53,171 nt of DNA, taken from a virus (taxonomy: Duplodnaviria > Caudoviricetes). Each line of letters opens with the position of its first letter. The stretch's first letter is position 1. Where the stretch lies: the IMG/VR virus record IMGVR_UViG_3300032308_000975, positions 1 to 53,171 of that record; one strand, written 5' to 3'. A program made the translations under genes and the position numbers. Of the stretch, positions 6,255 to 27,573 are shown in pieces. The notes under the pieces were generated by a model. The model was not told where the DNA came from. It did no database searches and was given only the letters and a program-made list of their open reading frames with translations.

Positions 6255-6277
6255 TACCAATCTCCAAATTTATCTAG

Positions 6278-6283: not shown

Positions 6284-6295
6284 ACAGAAATTGGA

Positions 6296-7203: not shown

Positions 7204-7212
7204 ATTGATCTC

Positions 7213-8295: not shown

Positions 8296-8307
8296 CGTGT
8301 TTCCTAA

Positions 8308-8869: not shown

Positions 8870-8875
8870 TATTTA
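8870..8875 (-). promoter_or_regulatory. Late promoter core (TAAATA)
   Basis: GATAAATAC overlapping the stop codon of the upstream gene. Confidence 0.65.
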
Positions 8876-9142
8876 TCCTTGACTGAGCATAGCCATAAGC
8901 TCTAGTTTTTCAACTGTGGCTAATACTCTATTGATATTGTCTATGGCCTGCTGTTGCTGTTCTAAATAACTTTTTTTCTTAGTCTGTCTTAAAAAAACTC
9001 CGGCCGTAGAATGGTCTTGTATGAATTTTTCTATGATTTTCTCTATTTGTATTATATCATGAGAAAACATAGGAAATCGTTTTCTCCATAAAGAAAACTG
9101 TTTTCTAAGTTCAGGAAAATCTCGTTCGCTTTCTATTCTCAT
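8873..9142 (-). CDS. Hypothetical helical protein (89 aa)
   Basis: The track's start at 9163 lies inside the terminator. ATG 9142 (MRIESERDF) sits 5 nt downstream of TAAATA (9148-9153). Confidence 0.6.
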   Translation of the reverse strand: MRIESERDFPELRKQFSLWRKRFPMFSHDIIQIEKIIEKFIQDHSTAGVFLRQTKKKSYLEQQQQAIDNINRVLATVEKLELMAMLSQG

Positions 9143-9147
9143 GAAGG

Positions 9148-9153
9148 TATTTA
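9148..9153 (-). promoter_or_regulatory. Late promoter core (TAAATA), probably giving a leaderless mRNA
   Basis: CTTAAATA-CCTTC-ATG. Confidence 0.5.
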
Positions 9154-9160
9154 AGTCAAA

Positions 9161-9186
9161 CAAAAAGGGCCTTGCGGCCCTTTTTG
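9161..9186 (-). terminator. Rho-independent terminator after the major capsid gene (potentially bidirectional)
   Basis: CAAAAAGGGCC-GCAA-GGCCCTTTTTG on the minus strand: perfect stem, GNRA loop, U tract. Confidence 0.9.
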
Positions 9187-9210
9187 AACTTTTGCTATTA
9201 AAGTCAGCGA

Positions 9211-10380: not shown

Positions 10381-10391
10381 TGTAGTTCTCC

Positions 10392-11537
10392 TTAAACTTT
10401 TAGTCCCGCAAGCCTGCGGATGTCAAATATTTCAGCGGTTTTTTCTTCACCGCCAATTTGTTGTGCCTGCTTATCGCCTGTAACCACTTCCTTTTGTGAT
10501 ACTGGAGCTGGTTCTGCTGCCTCTGTTAATGCCTGTTTTTTCTGTTGTACACCACCATCCATAACAGCTGGTAGGTACTTGTCATATGCTGTGGTTAGCT
10601 TTTCTGTTTGAACAGATTCTAGCAATTCCTTCATAATGGAACGCTTGTCTCCGCTCAATGGTCCTAGTAGTTCGCTCATAATTTCTTTACGTTCTGCTAG
10701 GTCTTTAGCTACCTTCAGCTGTGTTTCTCTGCTTTCTACGAGCTTCTGAGTATCAGCAACAATCTTAGCTGCTTCAGCAAGTTCTTGCTCTTTCTGAGCA
10801 ACAACTTTCAACAACTTAGCTGTTTCTGATTTCTCATTGAGATGACTCGCAGCATATTCGCTGGCGAAACTTTCAAAGATTCTACGACCGAAGTCATTCT
10901 TACGTGCTTGCTCGATGTCTTCTTTGAGTTGTGTCATTTCGCGGTGGATGCCGCTTGTAATGGCTGACTCAACGACTTTGGCGCTCTTAGAAATAAATGC
11001 ATTCTTTAGAGCATCAAATTTTTCTCTGCTTTCTTTGATTAGACGAACCTTGGTTTCAGCAAGGTCTTTCTTATCGCTGTGGAACTCAGCAATTTCTTTT
11101 GCCAGAGCGTCAACGATAAATGATTCTAATTTAGCAACGTTAGATGCTACAGCTTTGCGATCTTCGTGTAATTCGGACAATTCTTTCTGTAGTTGACGTA
11201 GAACAAATGACTCCATTGCGGCAGTATCGTTCTTCATCTTAGCTACATACTTGGCACGAGCTTCAACTAGTCCTTGGCGGTCTTCTGCGAATTCTGTTAG
11301 TTCTGCTGTTAAGCGATCTACTAACATATTTTCTACAGCTTCGGCCATAACTGACTTGTCATGCTCATATTTTTGTGCGAATTCTTCACGAAGTTCAGCA
11401 GATAGTTGCTCACGCAACTCTTCTGTAACTTGTTCACGGTTTTCCTGAATCTTTGCTTGCCATGCGGTTTCAATCTCCGATTTGATTTCCTCGGAAATCA
11501 CATTGTTCTCGAACAATTGTTTAACGATGTCTAGCAT
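10392..11537 (-). CDS. gp22: Prohead core scaffold protein (gp22-like)
   Basis: Glu/Lys-rich coiled coil between the protease and capsid genes, containing FGRRIFESFASE. Confidence 0.85.
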   Translation of the reverse strand: MLDIVKQLFENNVISEEIKSEIETAWQAKIQENREQVTEELREQLSAELREEFAQKYEHDKSVMAEAVENMLVDRLTAELTEFAEDRQGLVEARAKYVAKMKNDTAAMESFVLRQLQKELSELHEDRKAVASNVAKLESFIVDALAKEIAEFHSDKKDLAETKVRLIKESREKFDALKNAFISKSAKVVESAITSGIHREMTQLKEDIEQARKNDFGRRIFESFASEYAASHLNEKSETAKLLKVVAQKEQELAEAAKIVADTQKLVESRETQLKVAKDLAERKEIMSELLGPLSGDKRSIMKELLESVQTEKLTTAYDKYLPAVMDGGVQQKKQALTEAAEPAPVSQKEVVTGDKQAQQIGGEEKTAEIFDIRRLAGLKV

Positions 11538-11549
11538 GTGATTCTCCTA

Positions 11550-12179
11550 TTATTTGAGTCCTGAGATTATTTTTCTCAGACTCTCTGCTATGTACATTTG
11601 TGCCTTTGCGTCGCCTTGTACTTCTTTTGCTGTTATAAATGCCTTGTATCCACCTTTATTATTCATAAGATGTTCATAAACTGGTGTTGGGTATGCTCCC
11701 GGGGCGGAAGGTTGTGCTACTACGTCAACAGTGATAATTTCAAAACCTTTGACATTACCACCGCTATCTACTTCGCCAGAGCCTCTTGATGAAACTCCCA
11801 ACTTTACTCCTGATTCCAACATAGTTTGGACTAATTGTCCCATAGGTGTTGGAATTAATTTTAGTTTTCCGTAGCCGTTTGGACCGTCCATCCACATTTT
11901 AGTAATCATGTGTGACACACGGTCTAGGTTAATTTTCAAATCCTGCGGATGATCAACTTCCCCTAGCACGGAGTAACCACCAGAGATCTGTTCGTTGAGC
12001 GTCTTGACAGCCCTGCCAATTTCCTGAGAAGAATAAACACGCTGATTCGCATTACGGATATCTCCTTGAATGCAAATGCCGTTTAAATGCAAGGACTTTT
12101 TACCGTCCTTGCCTTCCTCGCTCTCCAAGACAATCTGTGCCTGGTCAAAACTCAAATGTTCTGATAGGGTGGTTTTCAT
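11550..12179 (-). CDS. gp21: Prohead protease (gp21-like)
   Basis: Motifs RNANQRVY, LGEVDHP, LDRVSHMI, TPMGQLV, GVKLGVSSRGSG and DVVAQPSAPGAY. Confidence 0.96.
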   Translation of the reverse strand: MKTTLSEHLSFDQAQIVLESEEGKDGKKSLHLNGICIQGDIRNANQRVYSSQEIGRAVKTLNEQISGGYSVLGEVDHPQDLKINLDRVSHMITKMWMDGPNGYGKLKLIPTPMGQLVQTMLESGVKLGVSSRGSGEVDSGGNVKGFEIITVDVVAQPSAPGAYPTPVYEHLMNNKGGYKAFITAKEVQGDAKAQMYIAESLRKIISGLK

Positions 12180-12188
12180 CTTTACCTA

Positions 12189-12974
12189 TTACCTACGACC
12201 ACGGAAAAGACTTGCTGTATTGTCAGCTTGCTCAGCAGCACCTTTCTTTTCAGCACCATGGCCTGATTCTTTCTTCAAGCTATCTGCTGCTTTGCCGCCT
12301 GGAACGTTGACATTACCTGATTTCATATCCTGTGCTTTATTACCTGCTAGGCCGCCTGCTGTGCCTTTAGAAGCTTCTTTTGCTTCTTCGGCTTGAGCGA
12401 TGTTGCTAGCTGAGCCACCCATGTCGTTTTTACCTGCTACTGGGCTAGCTTTGTGATCAGCTTTTTCGCCGGCACCTTTCTTTTCTGCGCCGTGACCTGC
12501 TGGAACTTTTTCTACATATTCACGAACTGTTTCTAGCTCTGGCTCGATAGAATCTTTCATTTCTTCGTCGCCCATTTCTTCGCTGTCGTCACCTTTTAGC
12601 TCGTCAAATTTAGCTTGTAGTTCGTCAACGATAGCGTCTAGATCTTGAAAAAGCTCTTCTTCGCTTTTTTCTTCCATGTCATCGTCGCCGCCCATTTCGT
12701 CGCCCATTTCTGCTTCTGAATCTAATTCAGCAGCTAGGTCGTCAGTAGGATCAGCTTCTAGAGCTACTTCTTCGAAGTCCTCTTCAACTTCTTCGTCTTT
12801 TTCTTCGTCTTTTTCTTCGTCACTTTCTTCAGCGATTTCGCTTTCGATTAGACCTTCGTAGATTTCACGTGATTTTGCTACTACGTAATCGTGGAAAAGC
12901 TCTTCGGCTTTTTGTTGCTCGTCATTAACGAGATGCTCGAGCATCTGCTCGATCAAAGTATTCTTTTCTGCCAT
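12189..12974 (-). CDS. Highly acidic prohead core/scaffold-associated protein
   Basis: E/D-rich N-half and a basic C-half with a duplicated GHGAEKKGA motif. It sits between portal and gp21, where T4 has gp67/gp68. Confidence 0.7.
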   Translation of the reverse strand: MAEKNTLIEQMLEHLVNDEQQKAEELFHDYVVAKSREIYEGLIESEIAEESDEEKDEEKDEEVEEDFEEVALEADPTDDLAAELDSEAEMGDEMGGDDDMEEKSEEELFQDLDAIVDELQAKFDELKGDDSEEMGDEEMKDSIEPELETVREYVEKVPAGHGAEKKGAGEKADHKASPVAGKNDMGGSASNIAQAEEAKEASKGTAGGLAGNKAQDMKSGNVNVPGGKAADSLKKESGHGAEKKGAAEQADNTASLFRGRR

Positions 12975-13008
12975 GTTGTATTCTCCTTAGATGGTTAGGC
13001 TGTCGTTT

Positions 13009-13014
13009 TATTTA
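13009..13014 (-). promoter_or_regulatory. Late promoter core (TAAATA) for the core-protease-scaffold-capsid unit
   Basis: GTAAATAA, 34 nt upstream of ATG 12974, followed by the RBS AAGGAG. Confidence 0.6.
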
Positions 13015-13036
13015 CTACAGTTTTATTAAATCACCG

Positions 13037-13687
13037 TTAAATGGTAGTTTTTTGAGCATTTTGTTCTGAATAACTATTGATCGGAAATCTTTTAACAAAA
13101 TCCTCAAAAACCAAGTGTTTTAAATTAGGAAGGTTAGCACCTAGTCTATCAGGAACAAATCCACCTGCTTCTATTACTCGGTAAAAATTTATAGTTTTAT
13201 ATTCTTTAATGACTTTTTCTGTTTGGCTGAGCCAGTTTCCGTGATATGTAGCAGCATCTGTGCTCTTTTTATAGTTAAATGTATCAGCATAAACATTGTT
13301 AAATCTGCCTGCTACACCCATATAATCAAAGCCTAGTATATAAATTTCCTTGTGTCCTTGATTACAAGCCAGCCAAAGTGCTGTGGGTCCTGAACTCCAT
13401 CCTTTGTGCGGATTGAAAAAATTTACTCCTGTCTTAACAGTGATACCTTTATTAGGGTTGGTCCATACTTGATTTTGTTTATGATATCCTGTAGCCACTA
13501 TTTCGTTGACCATTTTAACGTCAACTGCTACTAGATAGTGTGGAGTAAATTCTCTATACACAGCATTACAGGCGTAAACTGTGCCTATTCCTAAAAGTTC
13601 TTTGGAATCTATGGATAATCTGCTGCGGCCGTTACCTAATACAAAGGCTGTATTATGCCGGTTGTTCTTGCTGTGGTGGTTGTCCAT
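13037..13687 (-). CDS. CstII/Maf (DUF115)-like putative glycosyltransferase
   Basis: The motif series FVLGNGRS, VYACN, WSSGPTALWLA, GHKEIYILGFDY parallels GNGPS / CN / TSG / GYKEIYL.GIDF of GT42/Maf-type enzymes. The start codon is uncertain. Confidence 0.55.
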   Translation of the reverse strand: MDNHHSKNNRHNTAFVLGNGRSRLSIDSKELLGIGTVYACNAVYREFTPHYLVAVDVKMVNEIVATGYHKQNQVWTNPNKGITVKTGVNFFNPHKGWSSGPTALWLACNQGHKEIYILGFDYMGVAGRFNNVYADTFNYKKSTDAATYHGNWLSQTEKVIKEYKTINFYRVIEAGGFVPDRLGANLPNLKHLVFEDFVKRFPINSYSEQNAQKTTI

Positions 13688-13898
13688 ACATCTGCTTGAT
13701 AAAATCTAATTCGCTTTCTGCTTCCATTTCGTGAGATTCTGAAGCCATTCTTAATTTATTAATTTGGCCAAGAGTGAGTCGAACTTTGCGACTATCTTTG
13801 CGTTTTAACACATCAGAGTCGCTGGAATTTTCGTAGCGTCGATCCACAGCGATCTCGCTAGAATTGTTGGAATAATAAATGAATTCATTAAGCAGCAT
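13653..13898 (-). CDS. Small head-module protein (81 aa)
   Basis: Immediately downstream of the portal gene, with an MLLNEF N-terminus and TAAATA 5 nt upstream. Confidence 0.7.
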   Translation of the reverse strand: MLLNEFIYYSNNSSEIAVDRRYENSSDSDVLKRKDSRKVRLTLGQINKLRMASESHEMEAESELDFIKQMYGQPPQQEQPA

Positions 13899-13903
13899 AA
13901 GGA

Positions 13904-13909
13904 TATTTA
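13904..13909 (-). promoter_or_regulatory. Late promoter core (TAAATA), probably leaderless
   Basis: GATAAATA-TCCTT-ATG, with no Shine-Dalgarno sequence between. Confidence 0.6.
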
Positions 13910-13913
13910 TCGT

Positions 13914-15611
13914 TTATGCTGCAGGAGCTGCAGCCTCGCCGCCTTCGGCACCTTGTTCGGCAGCAGCGGCCATGTCAGCGGGAGCTTCTGCGGTTTGTTC
14001 AGCAGCATCGGCTGCGATTCCTCCCGGTGTTACTCCTGCTGATCTTAATTCGCTTCCTGAATCTGCAGGGGGTTTAAGAGCAGAAGCGTTTTCTTCTCTC
14101 CATAAACGTTCGTTTTCTGTGATTTCTTCCTGTGTCAGTCCTAGGAATCTCTTCATACCAAATCTCTTGCTGAGATACGGTATCTGTACAATCTGAGAAT
14201 ATGTAGCTGCTCTAGCTGTGTCTAGCTCTGCTTGACGATAAGCCGCAAAGTTCTGTGGAGTGTTGAACTTTAATTCAAATAGGCTATTGTCAATATTAAT
14301 GCCTTGGCTGTTTAACCAAATTTTAAATTCTTGATCGAATGTTTCGCTGATGTTGCTCTGCAGACGCTTACAGTATTCATTGAAACGCAGTTCTTGAATG
14401 TAGGCTGTGCCAACTTTACCGTCAGCAACTGTATTTGAAGCTTCTTCAATACCTGTGGGCAAATAGGCTGCTGGAATTCTTAAAGCACGGAACAGCTTAT
14501 TAGTAAAAAAGCGTAAGTCTGTGATTTCACCAAGGTTTGTACCGCCTGCTAGCGTGTCAACTTTTGATCCGCGACCTTCTGCGGTCTGAGGAAAGAAATA
14601 ATCTTCATTGGTACTTAACGGATTATAGCTAGAATCGATTACTGATGTGCCACCACCTGTTGATGATGGAATACGGCGTTGTTGGATTTCATTTTTAACA
14701 CGTTCAACGAAAGCCATGGCCATATGTGCTGGCATATTACCTACGTCGACGTAGAATATTCTACGCTCAGGAGCACGTTGTACTCGATAGATAATAATAG
14801 CATCTTCAAGCAGTTCTTTCTGCTTGTAGACTTTAAACACTGATTCAAGAATTGAATTACCAAAAGGATAGTTGTTATCTAATCCTTCAGAAAGACTAAT
14901 ATGTATCATGTGCTTGGCATCTACAGTAACTTCATTTGTAGAATTTTGGAATCTAGTTCCTGGCGGTCTAGCAGCATCTCCAACAAAGCCTCGACCGAAG
15001 CCGCCACCGCTGGTATAACTGCTAGTGCCGCTTGGTGCGGTATTCATTGTTCCATGGGGTGTTACTGCTACTAAATTTTTAAAGTTAAAATTAAAATCTC
15101 TGATTACATACTGTTCAGGAATCTTTCCTTCACTTTCGTTTACAATAACTTTACTGACCTTAGCAGAATCCACATGAAGCCATTTTTTTGTCTGTGGATC
15201 TCTGATGAAAAAACAATCTCCGTATTTGAATGTATTACGGACGATTCTAAAAATTCTGTTTTCGAACTGCTGTATTTTATTCCATTTTTGTAGACTGTCT
15301 TTGAGTATTTTTACTTCAGTAGAAGTAGGATTACCTCTGAAAAACATGTGGAATGGGGTGGAATTTTCTTTATCTTTCTGTGTACAGAACTCAGCTAGAA
15401 TATCTAGAGCAGCATTAATTTCTGAATCCATATCCATGGTATCATACTGCATGTAGCGTTCGACGCGGTTTGGAGCACCAGCATAGACATCTGGCAAATA
15501 ACTAGAATAGTTTGCTCTAGCCGGCCCTGGTCGCAGACCGTTGCCTAACGGACTAAACGTACTGCTCTTATTACTGACTTCTACTGGTGTAAAGTATTTT
15601 TTCCAAGACAT
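13914..15611 (-). CDS. gp20: Portal protein (gp20-like)
   Basis: Hallmark LLEDAIIIYRVQRAPERRIFYVDVGNMP, plus EDYFFP and GGTNLGEITDLRFF. Confidence 0.97.
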   Translation of the reverse strand: MSWKKYFTPVEVSNKSSTFSPLGNGLRPGPARANYSSYLPDVYAGAPNRVERYMQYDTMDMDSEINAALDILAEFCTQKDKENSTPFHMFFRGNPTSTEVKILKDSLQKWNKIQQFENRIFRIVRNTFKYGDCFFIRDPQTKKWLHVDSAKVSKVIVNESEGKIPEQYVIRDFNFNFKNLVAVTPHGTMNTAPSGTSSYTSGGGFGRGFVGDAARPPGTRFQNSTNEVTVDAKHMIHISLSEGLDNNYPFGNSILESVFKVYKQKELLEDAIIIYRVQRAPERRIFYVDVGNMPAHMAMAFVERVKNEIQQRRIPSSTGGGTSVIDSSYNPLSTNEDYFFPQTAEGRGSKVDTLAGGTNLGEITDLRFFTNKLFRALRIPAAYLPTGIEEASNTVADGKVGTAYIQELRFNEYCKRLQSNISETFDQEFKIWLNSQGINIDNSLFELKFNTPQNFAAYRQAELDTARAATYSQIVQIPYLSKRFGMKRFLGLTQEEITENERLWREENASALKPPADSGSELRSAGVTPGGIAADAAEQTAEAPADMAAAAEQGAEGGEAAAPAA

Positions 15612-15624
15612 TTAAATTATCCAA

Positions 15625-18516
15625 TCAGGCTGCGGCCACTGAGAACATATCACCACCTAGACTCTTTTGGACACCTAGTTGTTTTCTGTTCAAATCCACT
15701 ACCTGTCTATTAGTTGCCACTAACTGTGCCATCTGCATATTTAACGATTGTAAGCTAGCCACCACGTCATTAAGGCTAGCAACACCGCCCGCTCCCGGAG
15801 CTCCTGCTCCTGATGCTGCGACAGTTGTGGCTGGTTTGGTTTCTACAGGTTTGGCTGTGGCAGCTGCTACCTGTGTGGAGGACGGAGTAGCTGCTGTCGA
15901 TCCCCCGGTCATAAATCCCTGTGCGAGTTGGGCACGTTTGGCAGTTTCTGCTTGGCCACCAGCATAACCAACTGCTTTGCCTACTGCGGCAATATTGGTA
16001 AGATCTACACCTTTCTTTTGTTTTTCTGCGAAATAGGCTGCTGCGATTTTGGAAGCTATAGCAGGATCGTTAGCTAAATCTGGATTTTTAACTAGGTCAA
16101 CTCCGATCATATCTCCAAATTTTTTGTAGTTATCTTTACCTGTTAACTGAATTAGACCTCTGCCACGATACTTAAATCCTTCATCTTCTCTATTGCCCAT
16201 TCTACCGCCATAGATAACATTACCTACAGCTTCTGGACCTTTGGCAGCCACTGCCTCGGCTTCTTCTACAGTTTTAAATCTAACTTTATTTCCGCCTTTG
16301 TTGCCTGCGCCATACAACTCAAATAATTTCTTACCGCTGTATTTTAAATTTTCATCTTGTGGCTTGAATCCAGATTCGGCTTGTACCTGTGCCATGATAT
16401 TGGCTACAGCCTTGGGATCTGTGATTCCTTGAGATGCTAACTGACTTCTCAGTGCGTCTTGTGTGGCGCCTTTAGTCATAGCTGCCGGAGCAGGACCTGC
16501 GGCTGTTGCCCCTGGTTGTTGTGCTGCAGAACCAGCACGTCTAGCAGCACTTTCAAATAATTTTGCAGGACTAGTAAAGTCGTATTTGGCAGTGGTTTCT
16601 ACTGCTTCTTTGGTCTGCTTGTTTTCCTGTTGTTTTAATTCAGTGCTTTTTTCAGTGGCTTTTGTATTTTCTTCTTTGGCTTTGGCCTCGGCCCTGTCTT
16701 TTTTACGTTTTTCAGCTTCTTCTTTGGAAATACCGCCCATCCATTTAGGTAGCAGTGACAATAATCCGTCTTTAAAATCAGCCATTCCTTCCCAAAGATA
16801 CTTAAGGCCTTTGTAGACAAGATATACTCCAGCAGCCAATGCGATAAACTTGATAGCAACCATAGCCATCGGTGCCATCATTAACATTTCTTTCATTGCT
16901 TTGATTTTGCTAACCACAGTAGCATATATTACTACCGCAGCTAATGCTCCTAGAGCCACACCCAACACCTGCATATTATCGCCCATAAACTGGAATACTG
17001 GTACCAGGAATGTTGAAATAAAGCTGACCATACCTTCAAATACACTCATCATTCCTTCTAGGAGACCACTAGTGGCTAGAAGTTTTGTAAATCTATTGCT
17101 GACCTGAGATATTTGTTCTTGATATTCTTTTAACTTAGCTGGATCTAATCCTTGAGCTTGAAGTTCTGCTGCTTTCTTTTCTTGTTTTAATCTTTCTTCT
17201 TCAACTTGCTTAAGATTCTTTTGACGAGCGGCAGCATCCATAGCCCCGATCATAAACTGTTTTTGTGCGTCTGTACCAAAATATGAAAGTGTTTCACCTA
17301 GGCCAGACTTAGCTACTCTAGAAGCTTCAGCTTGATAGGACGCATTGATCCTAGCTGCTTGATCTGCTCCCATCTTTCCTGTGGCACGGATTTGTTTATT
17401 CAATCCCATCATCTGACCAGCAGTCTCTGGCAAGAATGCTAATGCTGCTTTACCTGCTTCAGAAGTAGCAGTACCGGTAGCTATAATTTCCTTCATACCT
17501 TCTCTGTGTTCAGCAGGTATGCTATCCATTAATTTGTTTAATTCTTCTTGACTCTTGGCATCCATTTTAGATGCTATCATTCTGAACTGAGCATCTTTCA
17601 TTCTTGCCGCTCTAGCATCTTCTAATTCTTTTTTACTCTGTCCTGTTAATTTACTAACAGCATCTAAATTCTTTAAGTATTGTCCAGTTGATTCGATCAA
17701 CTGCGCATTATTCATTCCTTGAAGATGACCAGTCTTAGCCAGTCTGCCGGCATAATTGGCCATGCCTTCGTTGATCTGTTCTGTAGAATATCCCATACGA
17801 GCCAGTTGATCACCTAGCTCAGTGTCTTTGATTCCTCTACCTAACTGTGCTAATCTTTTAGCACCTTCAGCAGTAGATCCACCTAACAATGCTAGACTTT
17901 GACCAGTTCTAGCAATGATTCCGCTGAACTGGTCAAATGTTAATCCGGCACCAGTGGCCGCATCAATCATGTCAGTGATACTGCCTCCAAAATTCGCTCC
18001 TACTTCTGCTGCCTGTTGGAATGATTTATAAGTTTTTTCTGCAGCACCAGCTACCGCACCAAATACTGATGCTAGTGCTCCGCCAACTACAGGAATTTGT
18101 TGTAATGATGCTGCCGCTTGGGTTAGACTATTGCCAGTGTTAGCCAAAGCAGAAATCATACTGGTGAGTTTAGTTGCTGCTCCCATGGCCGCGCCGGCCA
18201 TAGCACCTAGAGCCTGTGAATTTGCTTCGGCTTGTTTTAATTGATCTTCTTCAGCTTTGGCACGAGTCGCAGCACGTTTTTTGCCTTCGTCTAATAATTT
18301 TAGTTCGTCTTGGCGTTTTTTGTTTAGATCTTTGGTTTGATCTGCTAGCCGTTTGAGTTCTTTTTCTAGTTCGGCCTGCGCTTTACCGCCTTTACCGCCT
18401 TTGCCACCCGCAGACATGGCCATCATTACCGCGAGAAGTTGCTTTAACGTGGTTTCGGTTGCCGCATTATTAAGTTCTATTGGATTGCCGCCAAGATCGC
18501 CGTAGACGTCTGCCAT
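15625..18516 (-). CDS. Tape-measure-like protein with C-terminal GH19 (chitinase/lysozyme-like) domain
   Basis: Long Ala/Gly/Gln-rich helical body with two hydrophobic stretches; GH19 motifs MAQVQAESGF, YGGRMGN and YRGRGLIQLTGKDNY. Confidence 0.8.
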   Translation of the reverse strand: MADVYGDLGGNPIELNNAATETTLKQLLAVMMAMSAGGKGGKGGKAQAELEKELKRLADQTKDLNKKRQDELKLLDEGKKRAATRAKAEEDQLKQAEANSQALGAMAGAAMGAATKLTSMISALANTGNSLTQAAASLQQIPVVGGALASVFGAVAGAAEKTYKSFQQAAEVGANFGGSITDMIDAATGAGLTFDQFSGIIARTGQSLALLGGSTAEGAKRLAQLGRGIKDTELGDQLARMGYSTEQINEGMANYAGRLAKTGHLQGMNNAQLIESTGQYLKNLDAVSKLTGQSKKELEDARAARMKDAQFRMIASKMDAKSQEELNKLMDSIPAEHREGMKEIIATGTATSEAGKAALAFLPETAGQMMGLNKQIRATGKMGADQAARINASYQAEASRVAKSGLGETLSYFGTDAQKQFMIGAMDAAARQKNLKQVEEERLKQEKKAAELQAQGLDPAKLKEYQEQISQVSNRFTKLLATSGLLEGMMSVFEGMVSFISTFLVPVFQFMGDNMQVLGVALGALAAVVIYATVVSKIKAMKEMLMMAPMAMVAIKFIALAAGVYLVYKGLKYLWEGMADFKDGLLSLLPKWMGGISKEEAEKRKKDRAEAKAKEENTKATEKSTELKQQENKQTKEAVETTAKYDFTSPAKLFESAARRAGSAAQQPGATAAGPAPAAMTKGATQDALRSQLASQGITDPKAVANIMAQVQAESGFKPQDENLKYSGKKLFELYGAGNKGGNKVRFKTVEEAEAVAAKGPEAVGNVIYGGRMGNREDEGFKYRGRGLIQLTGKDNYKKFGDMIGVDLVKNPDLANDPAIASKIAAAYFAEKQKKGVDLTNIAAVGKAVGYAGGQAETAKRAQLAQGFMTGGSTAATPSSTQVAAATAKPVETKPATTVAASGAGAPGAGGVASLNDVVASLQSLNMQMAQLVATNRQVVDLNRKQLGVQKSLGGDMFSVAAA

Positions 18517-20986: not shown

Positions 20987-22734
20987 TAGGCCACCTTCAA
21001 TTCATTTTTCATATAGTTAACTATCTGCACTTTAGTATCTACAGGCAGTTTCATTATTTGATCGGATAAAGTTTTGTAATCGATTTGATCAGCTGTGCCT
21101 TTGGCACCCGGTTCCGGTATCTGCATGCCTGAATATACTTTCTTAACTACTTCTGGGTTAACACCTGCCTGCTGCATGATATCTGCCACAGCGTTTGAAT
21201 CTGTAGGGGAACCTGCCTTCTTCCAAGCCTGCATTAATTTGTCAGCAGTGACCTGCTGTGTGATATTTTGAGCTTTGGTCTTTAACCAAGAACCTGCTTT
21301 CTGTAGCATGCCTGCTTCTAATACTAGATATCCTTCTAGTATTAGATCTCTATTAGTAGCTGCCACACGCTTCATGATCAAATAACACTGACCTTCTGTT
21401 AAACGATTTCCAAGATATTCACGACTCTGTGTCTGAGGTCTTTTTAAAGTTGGTCTAAGATTTAATTGCTGTGATGATGTGTCTGCAGCAGCGGCTGGTG
21501 TAGCCTGTTTGGCAAGATCATATGCTGCCTGTACTTCAGGGCTAGGTGTGTTGCCCATAGATTTGCTCATGTCCACTACAGCCATCTGCTGTGCGCTTAA
21601 TGGTTGACCAGGAACTACTGGTTCATTGGCTACCATAACTCCAGAAAACTGTTTTGATCCACCTTTGGCTGCTTCTGCGTCCCAGTCTATTCGACCTACT
21701 CTGCGATCCCCCTGGATGTTCATGTCTGGACCAACACCAGCTAGCGGATCGCTGGATCCTGAGCCGCTGCTGATGCCCGGAGTTGCCATTTTTCCTTGAC
21801 TGGTTAAGTCGGCAAATGTCTTAGCATCCATAGTCTTCAATGGAATATCACCAGTGAACACTTTATTGCCGTTGGCATCAAATACTTCGATAGAGTTGCC
21901 TCGAGAACCAAATGTATATCCCTGATCAGGGGGAAACTTGTTTAACAGCCTATCCTGCATAGCTTGATCTGCGGCTAGGCCGGCTTCTATGTCACCACCA
22001 CTTTGACCTGCAGCAGCTTTATTACTGCCACCACCGCTGCCTATACCACTGACAAAATCAGCAGCTAGTTTACCTACCACAGCACCAGCAGCACCTGCCA
22101 ATGCAGGTTTAATAGCACCTTTGAATGATTCTTTCCATGACTTGCCCTGTATCTTAGCCGCAGCCACAGCAACTCCTCCCGCTACTAAGGCACCGGCTAC
22201 GCCCGCCACTAGTGTACCAGGCAATCCCATAGTATTCAACATAGGTCCAACTTTCTGTACCAATCCACCTAACACACCACCTACTAGAGCCAAGACCACT
22301 GGCTGTACTGCGGGATTTTTGGCAGCATTGGCCACCATCTTCATTAATCCGCCTTTGGTCTCTGCATCCACAGGCAGTTTACTTACCGCTGCTCCGGCCT
22401 TGTTGGCAAACTGCGGATCGTTGGCAGCATTAGGATCTGGCGCAGGCAAGCTATCACTGAGCTTTTGTAGCATAGAATCGGGTATGATCTTTTCTACGAC
22501 CTTGCCTAACATAGTAGAATTAGTACCTGATGCTTGTGCTTCTTTGTGCGCTGCTTGGAAGATCTGTGTTATTTGTTGTTGTGTTAATTCAGCTTCTTCT
22601 AGATAATGCGACCAAGGTTTAAAGAATTGTTCATCAATCCTTTCCATAGTAGCTTTCATTTTATAGGAATTAATACAGTCTTCGTTGATGTAATTTACTA
22701 AACTGTATCTATCATCGATGTCTAAGAGGCGCAT
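20986..22734 (-). CDS. Putative internal head (ejected) protein with hydrophobic Gly-rich hairpin
   Basis: Start reassigned from 22869 to ATG 22734 (MRLLDID), because a terminator and a TAAATA promoter lie between the two ATGs. Confidence 0.7.
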   Translation of the reverse strand: MRLLDIDDRYSLVNYINEDCINSYKMKATMERIDEQFFKPWSHYLEEAELTQQQITQIFQAAHKEAQASGTNSTMLGKVVEKIIPDSMLQKLSDSLPAPDPNAANDPQFANKAGAAVSKLPVDAETKGGLMKMVANAAKNPAVQPVVLALVGGVLGGLVQKVGPMLNTMGLPGTLVAGVAGALVAGGVAVAAAKIQGKSWKESFKGAIKPALAGAAGAVVGKLAADFVSGIGSGGGSNKAAAGQSGGDIEAGLAADQAMQDRLLNKFPPDQGYTFGSRGNSIEVFDANGNKVFTGDIPLKTMDAKTFADLTSQGKMATPGISSGSGSSDPLAGVGPDMNIQGDRRVGRIDWDAEAAKGGSKQFSGVMVANEPVVPGQPLSAQQMAVVDMSKSMGNTPSPEVQAAYDLAKQATPAAAADTSSQQLNLRPTLKRPQTQSREYLGNRLTEGQCYLIMKRVAATNRDLILEGYLVLEAGMLQKAGSWLKTKAQNITQQVTADKLMQAWKKAGSPTDSNAVADIMQQAGVNPEVVKKVYSGMQIPEPGAKGTADQIDYKTLSDQIMKLPVDTKVQIVNYMKNELKVA

Positions 22735-22760
22735 TTGTGTTAATCCAAAGGTGTATTGTT

Positions 22761-22766
22761 TATTTA
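22761..22766 (-). promoter_or_regulatory. Late promoter core (TAAATA)
   Basis: AATAAATA directly after the terminator, 26 nt upstream of ATG 22734. Confidence 0.65.
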
Positions 22767-22770
22767 TTTT

Positions 22771-22792
22771 AAAAACGAGCTTACGCTCGTTT
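22771..22792 (-). terminator. Rho-independent terminator closing the GIY-YIG/ncRNA unit
   Basis: AACGAGC-GTAA-GCTCGTT followed by further T residues on the minus strand. Confidence 0.7.
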
Positions 22793-23234
22793 GCGTTATC
22801 GCTTACGCTCAACGCATTTTTTCTTTCTGGAAATGTTTTGTAAGATAACTGCGAAGCAGTTTTTAGCATTATCCAGATCGTTCAGTCATACTTAGCCCGT
22901 TGCCGGGCTAGATGTGAACATTATCCGAGTCGAACAAGTCATATAACAGTAGAGCATTACAGAGGCGGTCAGCCGGTACCTCGAGCTCCGTCTTAGATCT
23001 GACGGCGGACTAGATCTGCCTGTTATCGCAAACCGTAGTCGTGGGTTATTAACCCTCTTTTAGCCTTTAAAATCAATACTTTTTATTACAGTAAACCGGT
23101 TATAGGCGTATCCGATCGTCGTCCTGTCAAGGATAGTACTGTAGTTACCCTTCGCCAATTTAGGGGCCTTACCGTGCGACATCACCACGGATTTCGGGCA
23201 TCATTATATTCACCGATGCGGGTTTTTTTGGCGA
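22771..23234 (-). ncRNA. Candidate large structured ncRNA (about 460 nt) of unrecognised class
   Basis: The only long non-coding stretch in the window. It has at least ten stems by inspection, GNRA loops in the minus orientation and a 7-bp pseudoknot (see findings). Confidence 0.65.
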
Positions 23235-23669
23235 TTATTTGCCTTTTTGTTGTTCTAAAAGACGCTGCCTTAGTATGTTTGATCCGCCTACTCTGACGTT
23301 TATAATGCCATTATAATAGTCATCTGTTTCTAAAACCCTGCGTTCAAACTGCTCTCTTGCCTCTAAATATGACATTTCTGCCTTGCTTTTGCAGTAATAA
23401 AGTATTTCTCTGGTGAAGTTTTCTGGACCTAATGCTTGGACGTCTGCTTGTAGCCTATCGGAAGAACCCCAGTATTCGCGCCAATCGCTTTCTACTACAG
23501 ATCTTCTTTTAAGTTTTTTGCCTTTGAGTGGTGGTTTAGTACGTTTAAACTGTGCTAATTTTTTGCCTATGTACTTCTGTCCAGTTTTAAGATTCGTGAT
23601 GAGGTAAACAAAGCCAATGTAGCCTTCTGGTATTTCTTCTACGAGTTGATTTTGATACGTCCACAGCAC
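23235..23669 (-). CDS. Stand-alone GIY-YIG endonuclease-domain protein
   Basis: GFVYLITN...KYIGKK, YWGSS, FTREIL, the conserved Glu in YLEAREQ and Asn in YYNG. No C-terminal DNA-binding domain. Confidence 0.8.
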   Translation of the reverse strand: MLWTYQNQLVEEIPEGYIGFVYLITNLKTGQKYIGKKLAQFKRTKPPLKGKKLKRRSVVESDWREYWGSSDRLQADVQALGPENFTREILYYCKSKAEMSYLEAREQFERRVLETDDYYNGIINVRVGGSNILRQRLLEQQKGK

Positions 23670-23900
23670 TCATTTAGTTAGTTTTGGCGGACGTCCTACC
23701 ATGCCTTTTCTGGCTGCCTTGCGTTGCTCTCGCTTTTCCTGTATTTCTATTCGCCTAGTCGACGCTTCGTTGCGTATTTCTGAAAGCCAAAATCTTGCCT
23801 TGATGCCTGCTTCGTCAGAGCTTTTATACTCAAAACGATCTTGCCATTTGATGTATTCTTGTAATGCCTTGATTAATCGGTCGTGTGCTTCTGTTGCCAT
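23670..23900 (-). CDS. Small basic helical protein (weakly Hc1/histone-H1-like)
   Basis: EAGIKARFWLSEI motif and a basic tail RKGMVGRPPK; tightly coupled to gp46 and the GIY-YIG gene. Confidence 0.6.
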   Translation of the reverse strand: MATEAHDRLIKALQEYIKWQDRFEYKSSDEAGIKARFWLSEIRNEASTRRIEIQEKREQRKAARKGMVGRPPKLTK

Positions 23901-25678
23901 TAAGTTATTATTTCAATGTCGTTGCTGTAGCTGGTAAATCCGTTTTCTTTAATCACTTTTAATACGTGATTAACCCTGCTGGTAAGATCATCTCTGTGGC
24001 TGATCAAGAAAACATTTTTATCTCGCTCTCTAGTCATCTTCTTTAACACTGCTATAGAGCTTTCAACGCCACTGGCGTCCATGCCCGAATCTACTAGCTC
24101 GTCGATAAACAGTAAGTTGATAGGACGATATAGGTTTTCCCACACGTCACGGAATGCCCAACTCAGTGATAATATCAGTCTATTACGTTCTCCACGACTC
24201 AGGTTATCAAAATCCAAGTCTTGACCTAGCTGTGTGATGATCACACTGAGGTCATTTTGGAATTCTACAATGTGCGGAAGTCCGATCTTGTCCAGATAAT
24301 AGGTCAGCCGCTGATTTAAGAAAGCTAGATTCTGATCGATGATCTTCTTGCGTACAAAACTGTCTTTGGAAGTCAAGAGTTTGTATAAAAATTCCTGATG
24401 ATCTTTAACACGAGTTAGATCGTTGATGCTGTCCCAGTCTACGATCTGTAGAGCAGTGTTTTTAAGTTCTTCGATCTGCTCATCATAGGGATTAGTTTCT
24501 GCTTCTTTGGCAGTGAGATCTTTGTTTAGGCTGTCTAGTGTGTTTTTATGATTTAATGCTTCTTCTAGACTGTCATAGATCACTGTAGGACATTCTGTGA
24601 TTTCACCTAATAAGACCAGCGCCTGCTCTAAGCTGATGAATTCTTCTTGATAATCTTTGATAGTTGTTTGGCTTTCAGCGATCTGTTTCTCTTTGGCAGC
24701 AATCATAGTTTCATGTTTGGCATCATGTAGATCCTGTCCACAGCTGTGACACTTGTGATCCTTCAATGAAACGATTTCTTTTTCTAGTTTTTCTAAGACT
24801 TTCTGTTCCTTGTCCATGGCCGCGGTTTGTTTAGCGATCATGCTGGTCAGCGTATCTCGCTCTTTTTTATTCTTAGTCCATTCTACTAAAGCACGTTGAT
24901 TGACGATTTCACGTTCGATGTCTATGGTACTGAGCACTTCTATATGTTTCTTAAGGTCTTCTACAGACTTAGTTTTGGTTTCTTGCCATAGTTTCAGCTT
25001 TCTTTCCAGTGCTTCGATGCTCTGTTGTATGCGATCGTTGGAAGCCTTGACTGTTTCGATCCTAGTATTTTCGGTTTGTATAGCGTCTTTGGTGACTTTG
25101 ATCTGTTCTTTCAGCGTTTCTGCTTTTTCAGATAGCTGTGTGATGCCCAGCAGTTGTTCTATGATGCTGCGTTGATCCGCAGACTTCATGCTCAAGAACG
25201 GTTCTGTGTAAGTGTTCAAGGCTACGAGATGCTTAAACATCTCGTGACTCATCTGTATACAGTCCTCAATAGCCTTTTGTGTTTCTCTGCTGTCTCCTTG
25301 ACTTTCATCGAGATCAGTTAGCTCTTGCTCCTGCCCGTTTATAGAGAATTTCAGCAGATTAGGCTTTCGGCCACGTTCAATATGATATTCTATGCCGTCT
25401 TTTTCAAAGGTCACAGTGACCAACATGCCTTTGCCGTTGATCTTATTGATCAAATTATCACGTTTGATATTAGTCAATGCTTGGCCGTAGATAGAATAGC
25501 TAAGGCCGTTGATAATAGTAGTCTTACCGGTACCGTTACGAGCACCGCTGTCATCACCACCCAGATCTAGGTTTTCACCTAAAACCAGCGTGAGCTGACC
25601 TTTGTCAAAGTCTATGGCCTGGGTTTGATTACCTACGCTCATGAAATTACGTACAGTTAGGTTCTTGATTTTTATCAT
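23900..25678 (-). CDS. gp46: Recombination ATPase, SbcC/Rad50-like (gp46)
   Basis: Walker A RNGTGKTT, zinc hook CHSCG, signature LSRGE, Walker B LLFIDE and H-loop ISH. Confidence 0.95.
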   Translation of the reverse strand: MIKIKNLTVRNFMSVGNQTQAIDFDKGQLTLVLGENLDLGGDDSGARNGTGKTTIINGLSYSIYGQALTNIKRDNLINKINGKGMLVTVTFEKDGIEYHIERGRKPNLLKFSINGQEQELTDLDESQGDSRETQKAIEDCIQMSHEMFKHLVALNTYTEPFLSMKSADQRSIIEQLLGITQLSEKAETLKEQIKVTKDAIQTENTRIETVKASNDRIQQSIEALERKLKLWQETKTKSVEDLKKHIEVLSTIDIEREIVNQRALVEWTKNKKERDTLTSMIAKQTAAMDKEQKVLEKLEKEIVSLKDHKCHSCGQDLHDAKHETMIAAKEKQIAESQTTIKDYQEEFISLEQALVLLGEITECPTVIYDSLEEALNHKNTLDSLNKDLTAKEAETNPYDEQIEELKNTALQIVDWDSINDLTRVKDHQEFLYKLLTSKDSFVRKKIIDQNLAFLNQRLTYYLDKIGLPHIVEFQNDLSVIITQLGQDLDFDNLSRGERNRLILSLSWAFRDVWENLYRPINLLFIDELVDSGMDASGVESSIAVLKKMTRERDKNVFLISHRDDLTSRVNHVLKVIKENGFTSYSNDIEIIT

Positions 25679-26685
25679 AGGTCTTTGTAAATGTCCAACA
25701 ACAGCTTTTTGTCATAGGTTTCGGAATCTATAGCACCGATCTGATTCATAACGATAGTGTCTACGCTTTCAAAATGTATATCCACGGGCACCGCTGTAGA
25801 TTCTACTTCTACTTTTTCTGGGATCAACATCAGTTCTCTTAAATTGTACTGAGGAATGAATTGTTCTTTGATGAAGTTAGCCTCTTCGAAACTGATGGGC
25901 AGATCTATGGTCACACGGCAGTGCATCTTTTCACGCAAAAGAGCGTCTGGTGTGTCTATGATCTGGCTTAGTTTGTAAGTCCTGTACACAGGCTGTCCGG
26001 GCCAAGTGCGATATTCGGGCGTACCACCCCACTCTAGGATCATCATACCTCGATCATCATCACCTGCATCTGCATAGTTGTGAGGAAATGCGTTACCGAT
26101 ATAGGTAATGTTTCTGCTGGTCTGACGCTTATGGAAGTGTCCTGAGAACACGTACTCTTGATTTACGAAATGTGTGCTCTGTAACTGCCCATGATCGGGC
26201 ATCTGCACCATGGCATTCATGTAGAAATTCGGCAGTTCTAAGTGACCGAAAATATAACGACTTTTGATCTTAGGCACAGTCTGCCATTCGTCGCCCACTA
26301 ACCACGGCATGATAGTTACTTCACCGTCAGTAAAAGGATCTTTGATAGGAATTACATTAGGAAACAGACGCATGAATTCTACAGAATTAATTTCACGTTT
26401 GTCTTTATAGAATAGATCGTGGTTTCCCAAGATGAAATAAACCTGAGTAAAGTTTTGGCTTAATCTTTCTAGGTTGCTTAGAGTGTAATTCATAGTGCTG
26501 ACGTCAGTGGTACTGCGATTATGATGCCAATCACCTAGGAATATAGCAGTTTCACAGCCTTCTGCTCGAGCAGTTTCGCAGAACCAAATAACAAACTCTT
26601 CGCAGTCGATGTTGTGCGTTCTGCTACCAGATTTCAAACCAAAATGTATATCAGTGAAACATGCGGCTTTTTTGAATAGACTCAT
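25675..26685 (-). CDS. gp47: Recombination nuclease, SbcD/Mre11-like (gp47)
   Basis: Metallophosphoesterase motifs TDIHFG, LGDW, GNHD, GHLE and SGHFH. Confidence 0.95.
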   Translation of the reverse strand: MSLFKKAACFTDIHFGLKSGSRTHNIDCEEFVIWFCETARAEGCETAIFLGDWHHNRSTTDVSTMNYTLSNLERLSQNFTQVYFILGNHDLFYKDKREINSVEFMRLFPNVIPIKDPFTDGEVTIMPWLVGDEWQTVPKIKSRYIFGHLELPNFYMNAMVQMPDHGQLQSTHFVNQEYVFSGHFHKRQTSRNITYIGNAFPHNYADAGDDDRGMMILEWGGTPEYRTWPGQPVYRTYKLSQIIDTPDALLREKMHCRVTIDLPISFEEANFIKEQFIPQYNLRELMLIPEKVEVESTAVPVDIHFESVDTIVMNQIGAIDSETYDKKLLLDIYKDL

Positions 26686-26693: not shown

Positions 26694-26722
26694 ATTGTAA
26701 ATTAATGTTGACAGCGTGTCAA
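26694..26722 (-). promoter_or_regulatory. Sigma70-type promoter for the gp47-gp46-small protein-GIY-YIG unit
   Basis: TTGACA (26717-26722), a 17-nt spacer, then TACAAT (26694-26699). The ATG lies 8 nt downstream. Confidence 0.75.
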
Positions 26723-27573
26723 TCCCAATCGCTACCGCTTTCCGCTGGCGCGGCAGGACCGCCGTAGCTACCGCTACCGCTGCCGCTATTCTGACGAGTC
26801 CAACTTGGATTCATGCCGTTCATTTCCAGAATATCGTCTCTGATGTTTTGGTTACGCTTTTCGATATTGATGATCCGCACGAATGAATTAGTAACAGCGG
26901 CAGTGTAATAAGCAAAAGGATTATCAGATTTGCTCTCATCGAATTGTAGTCCTATCTGAGTTAATTGTAGAATAGCCTGTCCACGCATTTCGTCGTTATA
27001 GGTATAACCTCGAACGTTGCCTCGAGTGGCATAACGCTCACAGAGCTTTATAAACATGCGGGCTAGATTATCAGTCATCTGTCCATGATCTTTTGAAAAC
27101 TTTCCTGTTTTCATACCGCCAGTCCAGTGACTTTTGCCTACACAGACAAGATTGTCGTTCTTGTCGAACTTCCAATGCTGAAACGGAGGAAAATTTACCT
27201 TTTCATGACTGTCTGCGGTATTCTTAAGAGTCTTTTTACGACCAGGCGCTAAAGGAACATGTTCAAATGTCATGACACGGAAGACTACGTCTTGTTTGGC
27301 AATTTTTTTATAGTCGATTTCAAAGTCCTTTAGTGATGCTTTCTTGTCCGACTGTTGTGCTTGGGAATGTGCTAATTTACCCAATCTTGTAGCACGATTT
27401 CTTTTAGCTTCTGCTATGGTTCTTACATTGATTTTTTCTAAATTTGGAACGATTAAATCATAATCGCAGTAGTCTGCAGCAGTATAAGAGCAATATGTGT
27501 TTTTACTTAGATGTATTTCTCTTAATAGGTCCTTGTTTGTAAGGTATTTTATTTTAGGTTGTGGCGTGATCAT
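26719..27573 (-). CDS. gp55: Late-transcription sigma factor (gp55-like)
   Basis: YLTNKDLL, GYTYNDEMRGQAI, FDESKSDNPFAYYT and FVRIINIEKR motifs, in gp55-47-46 synteny. Confidence 0.88.
   Translation of the reverse strand: MITPQPKIKYLTNKDLLREIHLSKNTYCSYTAADYCDYDLIVPNLEKINVRTIAEAKRNRATRLGKLAHSQAQQSDKKASLKDFEIDYKKIAKQDVVFRVMTFEHVPLAPGRKKTLKNTADSHEKVNFPPFQHWKFDKNDNLVCVGKSHWTGGMKTGKFSKDHGQMTDNLARMFIKLCERYATRGNVRGYTYNDEMRGQAILQLTQIGLQFDESKSDNPFAYYTAAVTNSFVRIINIEKRNQNIRDDILEMNGMNPSWTRQNSGSGSGSYGGPAAPAESGSDWD

Follow-up and report, generated by a model that had tools for sequence, protein, structure and literature searches.

IMGVR_UViG_3300032308_000975 is an uncultured virus record (Duplodnaviria; Caudoviricetes) with a CheckV completeness of approximately 15%, and the window analyzed here is the whole of that record, 53,171 bases in length. 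Comparative analysis shows that its minus strand carries, between a gene for a small GIY-YIG nuclease and a gene for a protein of no known family, a gene for a predicted multidomain, doubly pseudoknotted noncoding RNA of approximately 460 nucleotides (nt), of which Rfam models just the 5' 141 nt, as the motif Polynucleobacter-1 (RF01718). On the sequence evidence, positions 23234 to 22773 of the minus strand almost certainly encode a real structured RNA that is a member of RF01718. We propose that it is a free-standing RNA of mobile DNA with twin sites for a trans-acting partner, a proposal to which we give an even chance of being right.

RESULTS

Polynucleobacter-1 is the 5' third of a larger RNA

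When the whole window was searched, positions 23224 to 23084 of the minus strand matched RF01718 from end to end (model positions 1 to 141 of 141), with 54.5 bits against a gathering cutoff of 37 and an E value of 6.1e-09. The consensus helices P1, P2, P3, and P4, the last enclosing two hairpins, are all present, the inner part of P2 being noncanonical in the window copy. The match covers only the 5' third of the RNA; the other two-thirds belong to no Rfam family. A first-pass annotation, made by eye from the letters of the window, had proposed a multistem fold with long-range pseudoknots on the minus strand between 22860 and 23234. All of the pairings that it listed are found where it placed them, and its first four elements (GCAUC/GAUGC, CCGUG/CACGG, CCCU/AGGG, and UACAGUA/UACUGUA with its two enclosed hairpins) are consensus helices of RF01718, so that a curated fold had been rederived by eye. 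Its 3' limit was set too short: three further hairpins (P12, P13, and P14) are conserved and covary, and the RNA therefore runs approximately 90 nt further, to about 22773.

To collect homologs, viral contigs were searched for exact matches to a 16-base pattern taken from the P9 loop, a search that returned at least 119 stretches. Of these, 113 carry the flanks of the family and are true relatives, and six are chance matches. The 98 loci with at least 330 bases on both sides represent 92 distinct sequences, or 83 clusters at 90% identity. RF01718 is present in 15 of 20 pattern-seeded loci, and among the five that lack it, four represent a subfamily with another 5' domain, and the fifth is L064. 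A separate search with the downstream protein gave three related loci, one of which (L003) matches RF01718 with 100 bits and shares the gene order of the window. The same 16-base pattern returned 120 stretches from bacterial and archaeal contigs, none of which has the family flanks; their mean G+C content is 67%, and we regard them as chance matches. A blastn search of positions 22735 to 23234 against 50,697 deposited phage records gave no match.

The predicted fold is backed by compensatory changes

Ninety-four distinct homologs were aligned with MAFFT, and 109 modeled pairs were mapped onto the alignment from the window. Over the whole structure, 69.8% of the cells are paired, compared with 60.8% in shuffles (none of 500 reached the observed value), and when the partners were slid by 1 to 3 columns, only 36 to 45% of the cells were paired. 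The covariation score was 0.261 against 0.132. These counts were taken from MAFFT columns, in which the pairing of P1 to P5 is underestimated (37 to 61% of the cells paired). We also used a register-free test, in which each helix is scored with its own partner and with partners taken from other sequences. This test favors the own partner for every helix, P1 to P5 occurring in 26 to 40 distinct helix versions. The compensatory changes over the 94 homologs thus favor an RNA, as the first-pass annotation had expected of a real structure.

Both predicted long-range pseudoknots and nearly all of the stems are backed by compensatory changes. In the first pseudoknot (PK1), proposed at first pass between the 5' end UCGCCAA and the loop UUGGCGA, the own partner scored 13.78 and mismatched partners scored 10.97 (P = 1e-13), with about a dozen compensated versions that include GCGGU/GCCGC, AACGGU/GCCGUU, UCACCAA/UUGGUGA, and CUGCCA/UGGCAG. 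The first base of PK1 is the base after the TAA stop codon of the GIY-YIG gene. The later CGCC that had been offered as an alternative partner site for the same loop is invariant. The second pseudoknot (PK2, AUAACAG/CUGUUAU) is paired in 89.9% of the cells, and all seven of its pairs have changed on both sides.

The stems of the middle part were upheld to differing degrees. P5 (GGGUU/AACCC) scored 10.41 with its own partner and 8.84 with mismatched partners (P = 1e-11) and occurs in 26 helix versions. The 12-bp bulged hairpin P6, which scored 22.98 against 11.10, holds for its inner 10 pairs (76.7% paired, with 10 of 10 changed on both sides), whereas its outer two pairs are paired in only 20% of the cells. 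P7 (CCGUC/GACGG) is present and conserved in sequence, with 77.7% of the cells paired, but has no pairs with double changes and hence no covariation support. P8 (GAGC/GCUC) is paired in 90.2% of the cells and compensated at four of four pairs; the enclosed P9 (GAGGU/GCCUC) is paired in 85.4%, and three of its pairs lie inside the search pattern and hence were unable to vary.

In the 3' part, the hairpin UAGCCCG-GCAA-CGGGCUA (P11) is paired in 91.6% of the cells, with six of seven pairs compensated. The helix GUUCA/UGAAC (22880 to 22919) that had been drawn around it exists in the window but is weak across the family (8.51 for the own partner and 8.25 for mismatched partners; P = 0.09). An alternative outer helix, pairing GUUC before box R1 with GAAC before box R2 (both boxes are described below), was only slightly better (8.30 against 7.52), and neither was adopted. 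The core of P12 is paired in 85.3% (four of four pairs compensated) and P13 in 76.6% (five of five), and P13 is also found in three bacterial relatives (L324, L326, and L329). P14, which scored 18.02 with its own partner and 9.96 with mismatched partners, is paired in 75% of the cells (seven of eight pairs compensated) and, with the U run that follows it, is likely the 3' end or a terminator. GNRA and GCUUCGC-type tetraloops, which are RNA-specific loop types, recur in P11 to P14.

Folding energy was compared with that of shuffled sequence, and it is insufficient on its own to carry the case for an RNA. The exact span of the first-pass annotation was no better than chance on the minus strand (z = -1.42, with 10 of 100 shuffles as good) and gave a z of -0.90 on the plus strand; the whole RNA (22768 to 23236) gave a z of -3.41, and the 3' part (22735 to 23083) gave a z of -5.35.

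Two boxes in the RNA are kept identical

The segment GGAUAAUG had been reported as duplicated, and it is indeed found at 22867 to 22874 and at 22919 to 22926, where it forms part of two boxes, R1 (N-A-CUC-X7) and R2 (N-A-UCU-X7). Both boxes were found in 108 of 116 loci, and X7 is the same in both copies in 107 of those 108, while it takes nine forms among them (GGAUAAU, AGAUAAU, GCAUAAU, AGAUAAA, GGAUGAU, AGAUGAA, GGAUAAA, AGUUGAA, and AACAAAU). The triplets CUC and UCU are fixed and different; covariation between the boxes extends to the nucleotide located two positions before each triplet (1.06 bits). Each R1 column has its highest mutual information with its R2 twin (0.39 to 1.06 bits), and the value for any third column is at most 0.47 bits. 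When the box columns were left out of a FastTree tree, at least 29 changes of X7 were counted on it (the floor being one concerted change per variant), and the two copies agree in 88 of the 89 rows. Homologs differ widely in the distance between the boxes. Only NA and X7 are common to the two box modules: extension of the identity upstream of the boxes gave a shared 6-mer in 30 of 78 pairs against 26% of mismatched pairs, which is not significant.

The box pair was also found in loci collected by way of the nuclease. A protein-seeded search gave at least 572 viral stretches that encode a GIY-YIG relative, and the nuclease-seeded loci are the best 80 of these, 28 of which have at least 650 bases downstream. 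In 27 of the 28, the box pair is present with at most one mismatch, and control windows taken upstream in these loci contain no such pair. These loci add the X7 variants ACAUGAA, ACAUGAU, AGAUGAU, ACAUGAG, and ACGUGAA. The bacterial relatives described below carry the boxes with AGCGAAA or GGCGAAA as X7 (two variants, or three counting the sub-cutoff copy L327). Two RNA copies on one 327-kb viral contig (L060 and L067) represent a subfamily for which the box search returned no CUC/UCU pair.

No partner for the boxes was found in the RNA or its flanks. Complements of the first 6 nt of X7, with G-U pairs allowed, occur at no consistent position within 300 nt on either side (peaks of 23, 14, and 10 among 95 RNAs). 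Nine-mers complementary to the boxes gave 21 and 119 sites in whole loci, where shuffled queries gave 47 and 118. The window has 12 matches to the box motif where 14.4 would be expected, which is no enrichment. Neither a third box nor a regular array was found; nine stray copies with the exact X7 sequence occur in 108 RNAs, at scattered positions. One 11-nt site within the mRNA of the downstream gene (22598 to 22608, plus strand) is complementary to R2 with one G-U pair; a single match of this kind is near chance expectation, and the homologs have no consistent site. The boxes were also considered as sigma-70 promoters and rejected, since there is no minus-strand promoter-like site in 22500 to 24200 and the spacing from TGAC to GATAAT, 10 to 11 nt by eye, is too short. 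Identity of the boxes without a complement suggests either two sites for one trans-acting partner or a homology-dependent step.

The GIY-YIG nuclease is a frequent but separable neighbor

Among 98 loci with at least 700 bases upstream, 88 have a GIY-YIG homolog upstream on the same strand, ending a median of 254 nt before the search anchor, i.e., at the 5' end of the RNA. The homologs are strongly conserved, and 67 of 78 are 140 to 149 amino acids (aa) long. The gene is near-fixed in this lineage and has other contexts elsewhere. Free-standing GIY-YIG homing endonucleases of the T4 Seg type combine an N-terminal catalytic domain with a C-terminal DNA-binding domain and are sporadically distributed; in the window protein, the catalytic domain is present and is followed by only approximately 20 residues. 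No relative of solved structure was found at an E value of ≤1, and the PADLOC models gave no match other than homing endonuclease. The label "NAD synthetase" that small SegE-type GIY-YIG proteins carry in PHROG 447 and in the records of many deposited phages looks like a propagated misannotation, given the PF19835 GIY-YIG endonuclease match.

The RNA and the nuclease each occur alone, so the obligate co-occurrence of the omega RNA type is not what is found here. Ten of the 98 phage loci have the RNA without GIY-YIG; in its place stands a PDDEXK_15 endonuclease of the PD-(D/E)XK type in one locus (L014) and an RNase H in two (L012 and the L060 copy on the 327-kb contig). Conversely, all three of the cultured nuclease-bearing phages examined, Melnitz-3 (64% identity) and S-SRM01 and phiM12 (46%), lack the RNA behind it. 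We consider it most likely that the nuclease, whether selfish or domesticated, is a neighbor of a conserved RNA gene and not the partner of the RNA.

Relatives in bacteria and at nuclease-seeded loci

RF01718 exceeds the cutoff in 3 of 151 sampled genomes of one Burkholderiales-order group and is sporadic even within the two genera concerned (one of four and two of seven genomes). The bacterial copies have the Polynucleobacter-1 head, another middle part, the boxes, and the same P13 and P14, and all four bacterial loci have the RNA without GIY-YIG. In both loci that show the upstream side (L328 and L329), the upstream gene is a divergent DUF6641 gene. Downstream lies a 224-aa gene followed by a phage-type integrase gene, a YbjN-like gene, or an integrase gene directly. 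In the 18,001-base locus L328 (positions 1 to 18001; genome G051), the RNA stands between the phage-type integrase gene and, beyond DUF6641, a set of MotB/OmpA, EH_Signature, SNF2, and Mrr genes that we take to be a Zorya-like defense system. The RNA gene was considered as an integration target and rejected, since genome G051 holds no second copy of the 3' end of the RNA and hence no att-like duplication.

Many of the nuclease-seeded relatives have, by eye, different 5' and central parts and the same 3' domain, and an Rfam scan of 20 such loci left 14 without any match. Several (L260, L271, L286, L302, L322, and others) carry behind the same nuclease a sister RNA, probably marine at a guess, with a conserved GAUGUCGACGUAGGUUGGGAAAGGUCAGAGCCC and no Rfam match. 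It keeps the order R1-hairpin-UGACUGAAC-R2 and has the GCUUCGC and GAGCG hairpins at its 3' end. Taken together, the distribution of homologs shows a predicted RNA family that travels on mobile DNA, namely, on giant T4-like phages from lakes and seas and, sporadically, in islands of Burkholderiales-order bacteria with small genomes.

Gene setting and orientation

The features of the window are collected in Table 1. Its T4-type genes include those for the portal protein (Portal_T4), baseplate hub and wedge proteins, a late sigma factor, and the SbcD- and SbcC-like gp47 and gp46. The genes that flank the RNA are unrelated to each other and are not exons of one split gene.

The motif ATAAATA, which resembles the T4 late promoter consensus TATAAATA, follows P14 directly in 69 of 94 distinct tails and in 4 of 89 control windows, and the next ATG lies 10 to 35 nt past it in most tails. 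This suggests a separate late promoter for the downstream gene. The largest downstream open reading frame (ORF) is convergent in 13 of 101 loci, and the downstream genes form 24 unrelated BLAST clusters. On the other side, the largest upstream ORF is on the opposite strand in four phage loci (L048, L054, L056, and L064). A leader role thus fails at loci with a convergent next gene or with a separate promoter for that gene, and a 3' untranslated region (UTR) role fails at loci with a divergent upstream gene. Judged from these orientations, the RNA is probably free-standing and not cis-regulatory.

Table 1. Positions of the RNA, its elements, and the neighboring genes in the window
Feature	Position	Strand	Remarks
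Late sigma factor gene	26719-27573	minus	
gp47 gene	25675-26685	minus	SbcD-like
gp46 gene	23900-25678	minus	SbcC-like
76-aa ORF	between gp46 and GIY-YIG gene	minus	
GIY-YIG gene	23235..23669	minus	SegE type, 144 aa, catalytic domain only; PF19835 E 1.1e-35, residues 3-123
ORF-free gap	approximately 500 bases, 3' of GIY-YIG gene	minus	holds the RNA
Whole structured RNA	22773..23234	minus	approximately 460 nt, 5' pseudoknot strand to terminal hairpin
PK1 5' strand UCGCCAA	23228..23234	minus	pairs with loop 23152-23158; outside the Rfam model, which starts at 23224
Polynucleobacter-1 domain	23084..23224	minus	P1, P2, P3, P4 enclosing P4a and P4b; RF01718 and own-partner test
P5 hairpin GGGUU/AACCC	23043..23055	minus	after conserved A-rich linker AAGGCUAAAAGA
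P6, 12-bp bulged hairpin	23008..23040	minus	loop 23020-23026 AUAACAG forms PK2
P7 hairpin CCGUC/GACGG	22988..23005	minus	near-invariant GCCGUCA; 77.7% paired
P8 GAGC/GCUC enclosing P9 GAGGU/GCCUC	22952..22988	minus	invariant loop ACCGGNUGACC
PK2 3' strand CUGUUAU	22943..22949	minus	pairs with P6 loop AUAACAG
Box R1 GA-CUC-GGAUAAU-G	22919..22931	minus	X7 identical to R2; top mutual information with matching R2 column
P11 hairpin UAGCCCG-GCAA-CGGGCUA	22893..22910	minus	between the two boxes
Box R2 GA-UCU-GGAUAAU-G	22867..22879	minus	
P12 hairpin AACUGC-UUC-GCAGUU	22847..22861	minus	GCUUCGC loop type common to most homologs
P13 hairpin GCGUU/AACGC	22793..22815	minus	conserved inner GAGCG-loop-GCGA
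P14 terminal GNRA hairpin	22773..22792	minus	followed by U run
AUAAAUA, T4-type late-promoter-like motif	22761..22767	minus	between RNA and next gene (ATG 22734)
Gene for 582-aa protein of no known family	downstream of gap	minus	likely ATG at 22734

Two further observations concern the window at large. A second cataloged orphan RNA motif, freshwater-2 (RF02980), matches over its full model length at 8782 to 8854 on the minus strand (57 bits against a cutoff of 49.9), within the short gap that immediately precedes the ORF at 8308 to 8784. A single ORF of 4,656 aa occupies 36771 to 50741 on the plus strand, amid baseplate and tail genes.

DISCUSSION

The proposed model

From the gene layout, the RNA would be the last element of an early/middle unit made up of gp47, gp46, the 76-aa ORF, and the GIY-YIG gene, a unit that would end at hairpin P14, with the next gene starting from its own late promoter. 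The RNA would then act as a free-standing molecule, neither leader nor 3' UTR, whose folded core may hold out the two boxes as short single strands. X7 is the same in both boxes while it drifts between lineages, and the boxes thus look like twin docking sites; we put this forward as a tentative suggestion, one that we would not expect to win an even bet. The one trans partner would be sequence specific and could be two copies of either a protein or a nucleic acid, which the RNA may scaffold or sequester during infection. As far as arrangement goes, a predicted free-standing RNA on mobile DNA is the one model that fits all of the contexts in which the family is found.

Several points weigh against this proposal. 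No partner of the boxes was found in the RNA or its flanks, and the docking sites are thus reached by exclusion. Recombination among phages would inflate the count of 29 X7 changes, because the boxes lie 52 nt apart and are inherited together, and a FastTree tree on a MAFFT alignment is rough. The exact search pattern lies inside P9 and biases the homolog set toward one clade. The sequences are related and not independent, so the P values of the own-versus-mismatched partner tests overstate the evidence. The bacterial copies lie just upstream of co-oriented genes (224-aa, YbjN-like, or integrase), where a leader role is possible. Finally, a GIY-YIG gene that ends at the first base of the RNA in 88 of 98 loci, with the box pair in 27 of 28 nuclease-seeded loci, is tighter than expected of a chance neighbor, although this link could be inherited synteny.

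Alternative explanations

That close linkage could mean that the RNA is a partner of the minimal GIY-YIG nuclease, acting in target recognition, regulation, or inhibition in the manner of an omega RNA or an antitoxin. Such a role would suit a nuclease that is little more than a catalytic domain (PF19835 over residues 3 to 123 of 144) and strongly conserved at 140 to 149 aa, whose stop codon abuts PK1. We consider it highly improbable, since the RNA and the nuclease each occur without the other (the RNA alone in 10 of 98 phage loci and all four bacterial loci, the nuclease alone in all three cultured phages examined), which makes an RNA-guided nuclease unlikely. PDDEXK_15 and RNase H also substitute for GIY-YIG, and a hypervariable unpaired guide is absent from the ends of the RNA, where PK1 pairs the 5' end and P14 pairs the 3' end; the boxes take few forms and have no complementary site nearby. 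To our knowledge, moreover, all well-studied GIY-YIG enzymes are protein-guided DNases. The same stop codon touching PK1 might instead point to cis regulation, either as a 3' UTR that would stabilize or terminate the early nuclease operon, with PK1 sensing ribosomes at the stop codon, or as a leader or riboswitch for the downstream gene, and the position of the bacterial copies before co-oriented genes would agree with the latter. The motif table of Weinberg et al. 2010 (Genome Biol 11:R31, PMC2864571) lists Polynucleobacter-1, from Burkholderiales and from fresh water and estuary, as an RNA ("y"), cis-regulatory ("y"), and possibly a switch ("?"). The orientations reported here favor a free-standing RNA, with a convergent downstream gene at 13 of 101 loci and a divergent upstream gene at both bacterial loci showing that side. 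A late-promoter-like motif also separates the RNA from the next gene in 69 of 94 tails, and the downstream genes fall into 24 unrelated clusters. A length of 460 nt with two pseudoknots would also far exceed the needs of a terminator or stabilizer. Cis regulation of either kind is, in our estimate, improbable.

An element that acts on its own DNA locus would account for the gathering of structure-specific nucleases, RNase H, and integrases beside the RNA. Its transcript or folded strand would mark or prime replication or recombination, and the identity of R1 and R2 would allow register-shifted pairing. DNA-cutting or -joining neighbors (GIY-YIG, PD-(D/E)XK, RNase H, or tyrosine integrase) are found in every context, identity and not complementarity of the boxes is what homology-dependent steps require, and an A/T-rich stretch follows P14. 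The GC skew, however, does not turn at 23 kb, its cumulative minimum lying near 27 kb, where gene orientation flips, and no replication genes are adjacent. The RNA-typical tetraloops of P11 to P14, the widely varying box spacing, and the absence of a copy of the 3' end elsewhere in genome G051 also speak against it, and we judge this explanation unlikely. A self-processing or catalytic RNA, in which cleavage or ligation at the two identical boxes would free an approximately 50-nt P11 unit, or which would represent a new ribozyme class, would be in keeping with the size, the two pseudoknots, and the invariant loops, all in the ribozyme range, and identical sites that flank a hairpin would give a defined product. 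The four Rfam matches at an E value of ≤10 within 22600 to 23950 include no intron or self-cleaving ribozyme, there are no exons, and there is no third box or array, and a catalytic role is accordingly very unlikely. Of the earlier suggestion of "a ribozyme or a large phage RNA," it is thus the large multidomain RNA that stands. A further possibility, to which we give little weight, is that the boxes must be identical and not complementary as the signature of a homology-dependent step. In one form, the RNA may clamp two copies of one trans nucleic acid. In another, R1 in the transcript may pair with the DNA complement of R2, extruding the P11 palindrome, and the register-shifted hybrid may give a branched substrate that primes replication or recombination at the locus; this form would account for the presence of junction nucleases, RNase H, and integrases beside the RNA. 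Either one, if true, would make this RNA a new type of device on mobile DNA.

Comparison with known RNAs

The free-standing RNA proposed here shares with Polynucleobacter-1 the 141-nt model from end to end, its helices, and its occurrence in fresh water and Burkholderiales; the PK1 5' strand, P5 to P14, PK2, and the twin boxes lie outside the cataloged motif. A full-text search on "Polynucleobacter-1" returned only the naming paper, Weinberg et al. 2010. Searches on GIY-YIG with noncoding RNA, on T4-like phages with pseudoknots, and on large phage RNAs returned no title or abstract on this RNA.

GOLLD and ROOL RNAs usually adjoin tRNA genes, whereas ARAGORN finds no tRNA or transfer-messenger RNA gene in the window. 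The RNA described here resembles these large ornate RNAs of phages and prophages (Kretsch et al. 2025, Nature, PMC12286853) in being several hundred nucleotides long, intricately folded, phage borne, and not tied to one protein; it differs in being smaller and in having no sequence or model match to either. Like HEARO and the omega RNAs of IscB and TnpB, it is a large structured RNA that abuts a compact nuclease gene on mobile DNA, but the nuclease is of the GIY-YIG and not the RuvC/HNH type, a variable guide is lacking, and either component can be present without the other.

The P4 CI RNA (seqA/seqC) and the P1/P7 c4 RNA (a1b1/a2b2) also have two direct-repeat boxes on one transcript, which are required to have the same sequence and whose pairing partner is a complementary loop, with its coding sequence between the repeats or next to them. 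The RNA in the window has the two direct-repeat boxes but no complementary element that we could find in the RNA or the flanking kilobases. Cow-rumen-2 (RF02947) has a weak local likeness to P6 to P9 (GCCGYCA, ..GGNUGACC.., GUAA), but membership was rejected at 18.5 bits against a cutoff of 66 (E value of 1.8 in a 1.35-kb search), and the match did not recur at an E value of ≤1 in 20 relatives. A type III toxin-antitoxin RNA was also rejected, as tandem whole-unit repeats beside an endoribonuclease gene were not found.

Implications

Listed in Rfam since 2010 as an orphan motif of 141 nt, Polynucleobacter-1 can now be regarded as the head of a predicted RNA of approximately 460 nt with two pseudoknots, one that ranks with the large ornate phage RNAs. 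The RNA is common, with more than 100 distinct copies in contigs of giant T4-like phages, at least 572 related nuclease loci, and some bacterial islands, and a correct full-length model would improve the annotation of phage metagenomes. Its two boxes, kept identical through many changes, were matched here to no known RNA mechanism, and they offer a concrete handle for experiment on this RNA.

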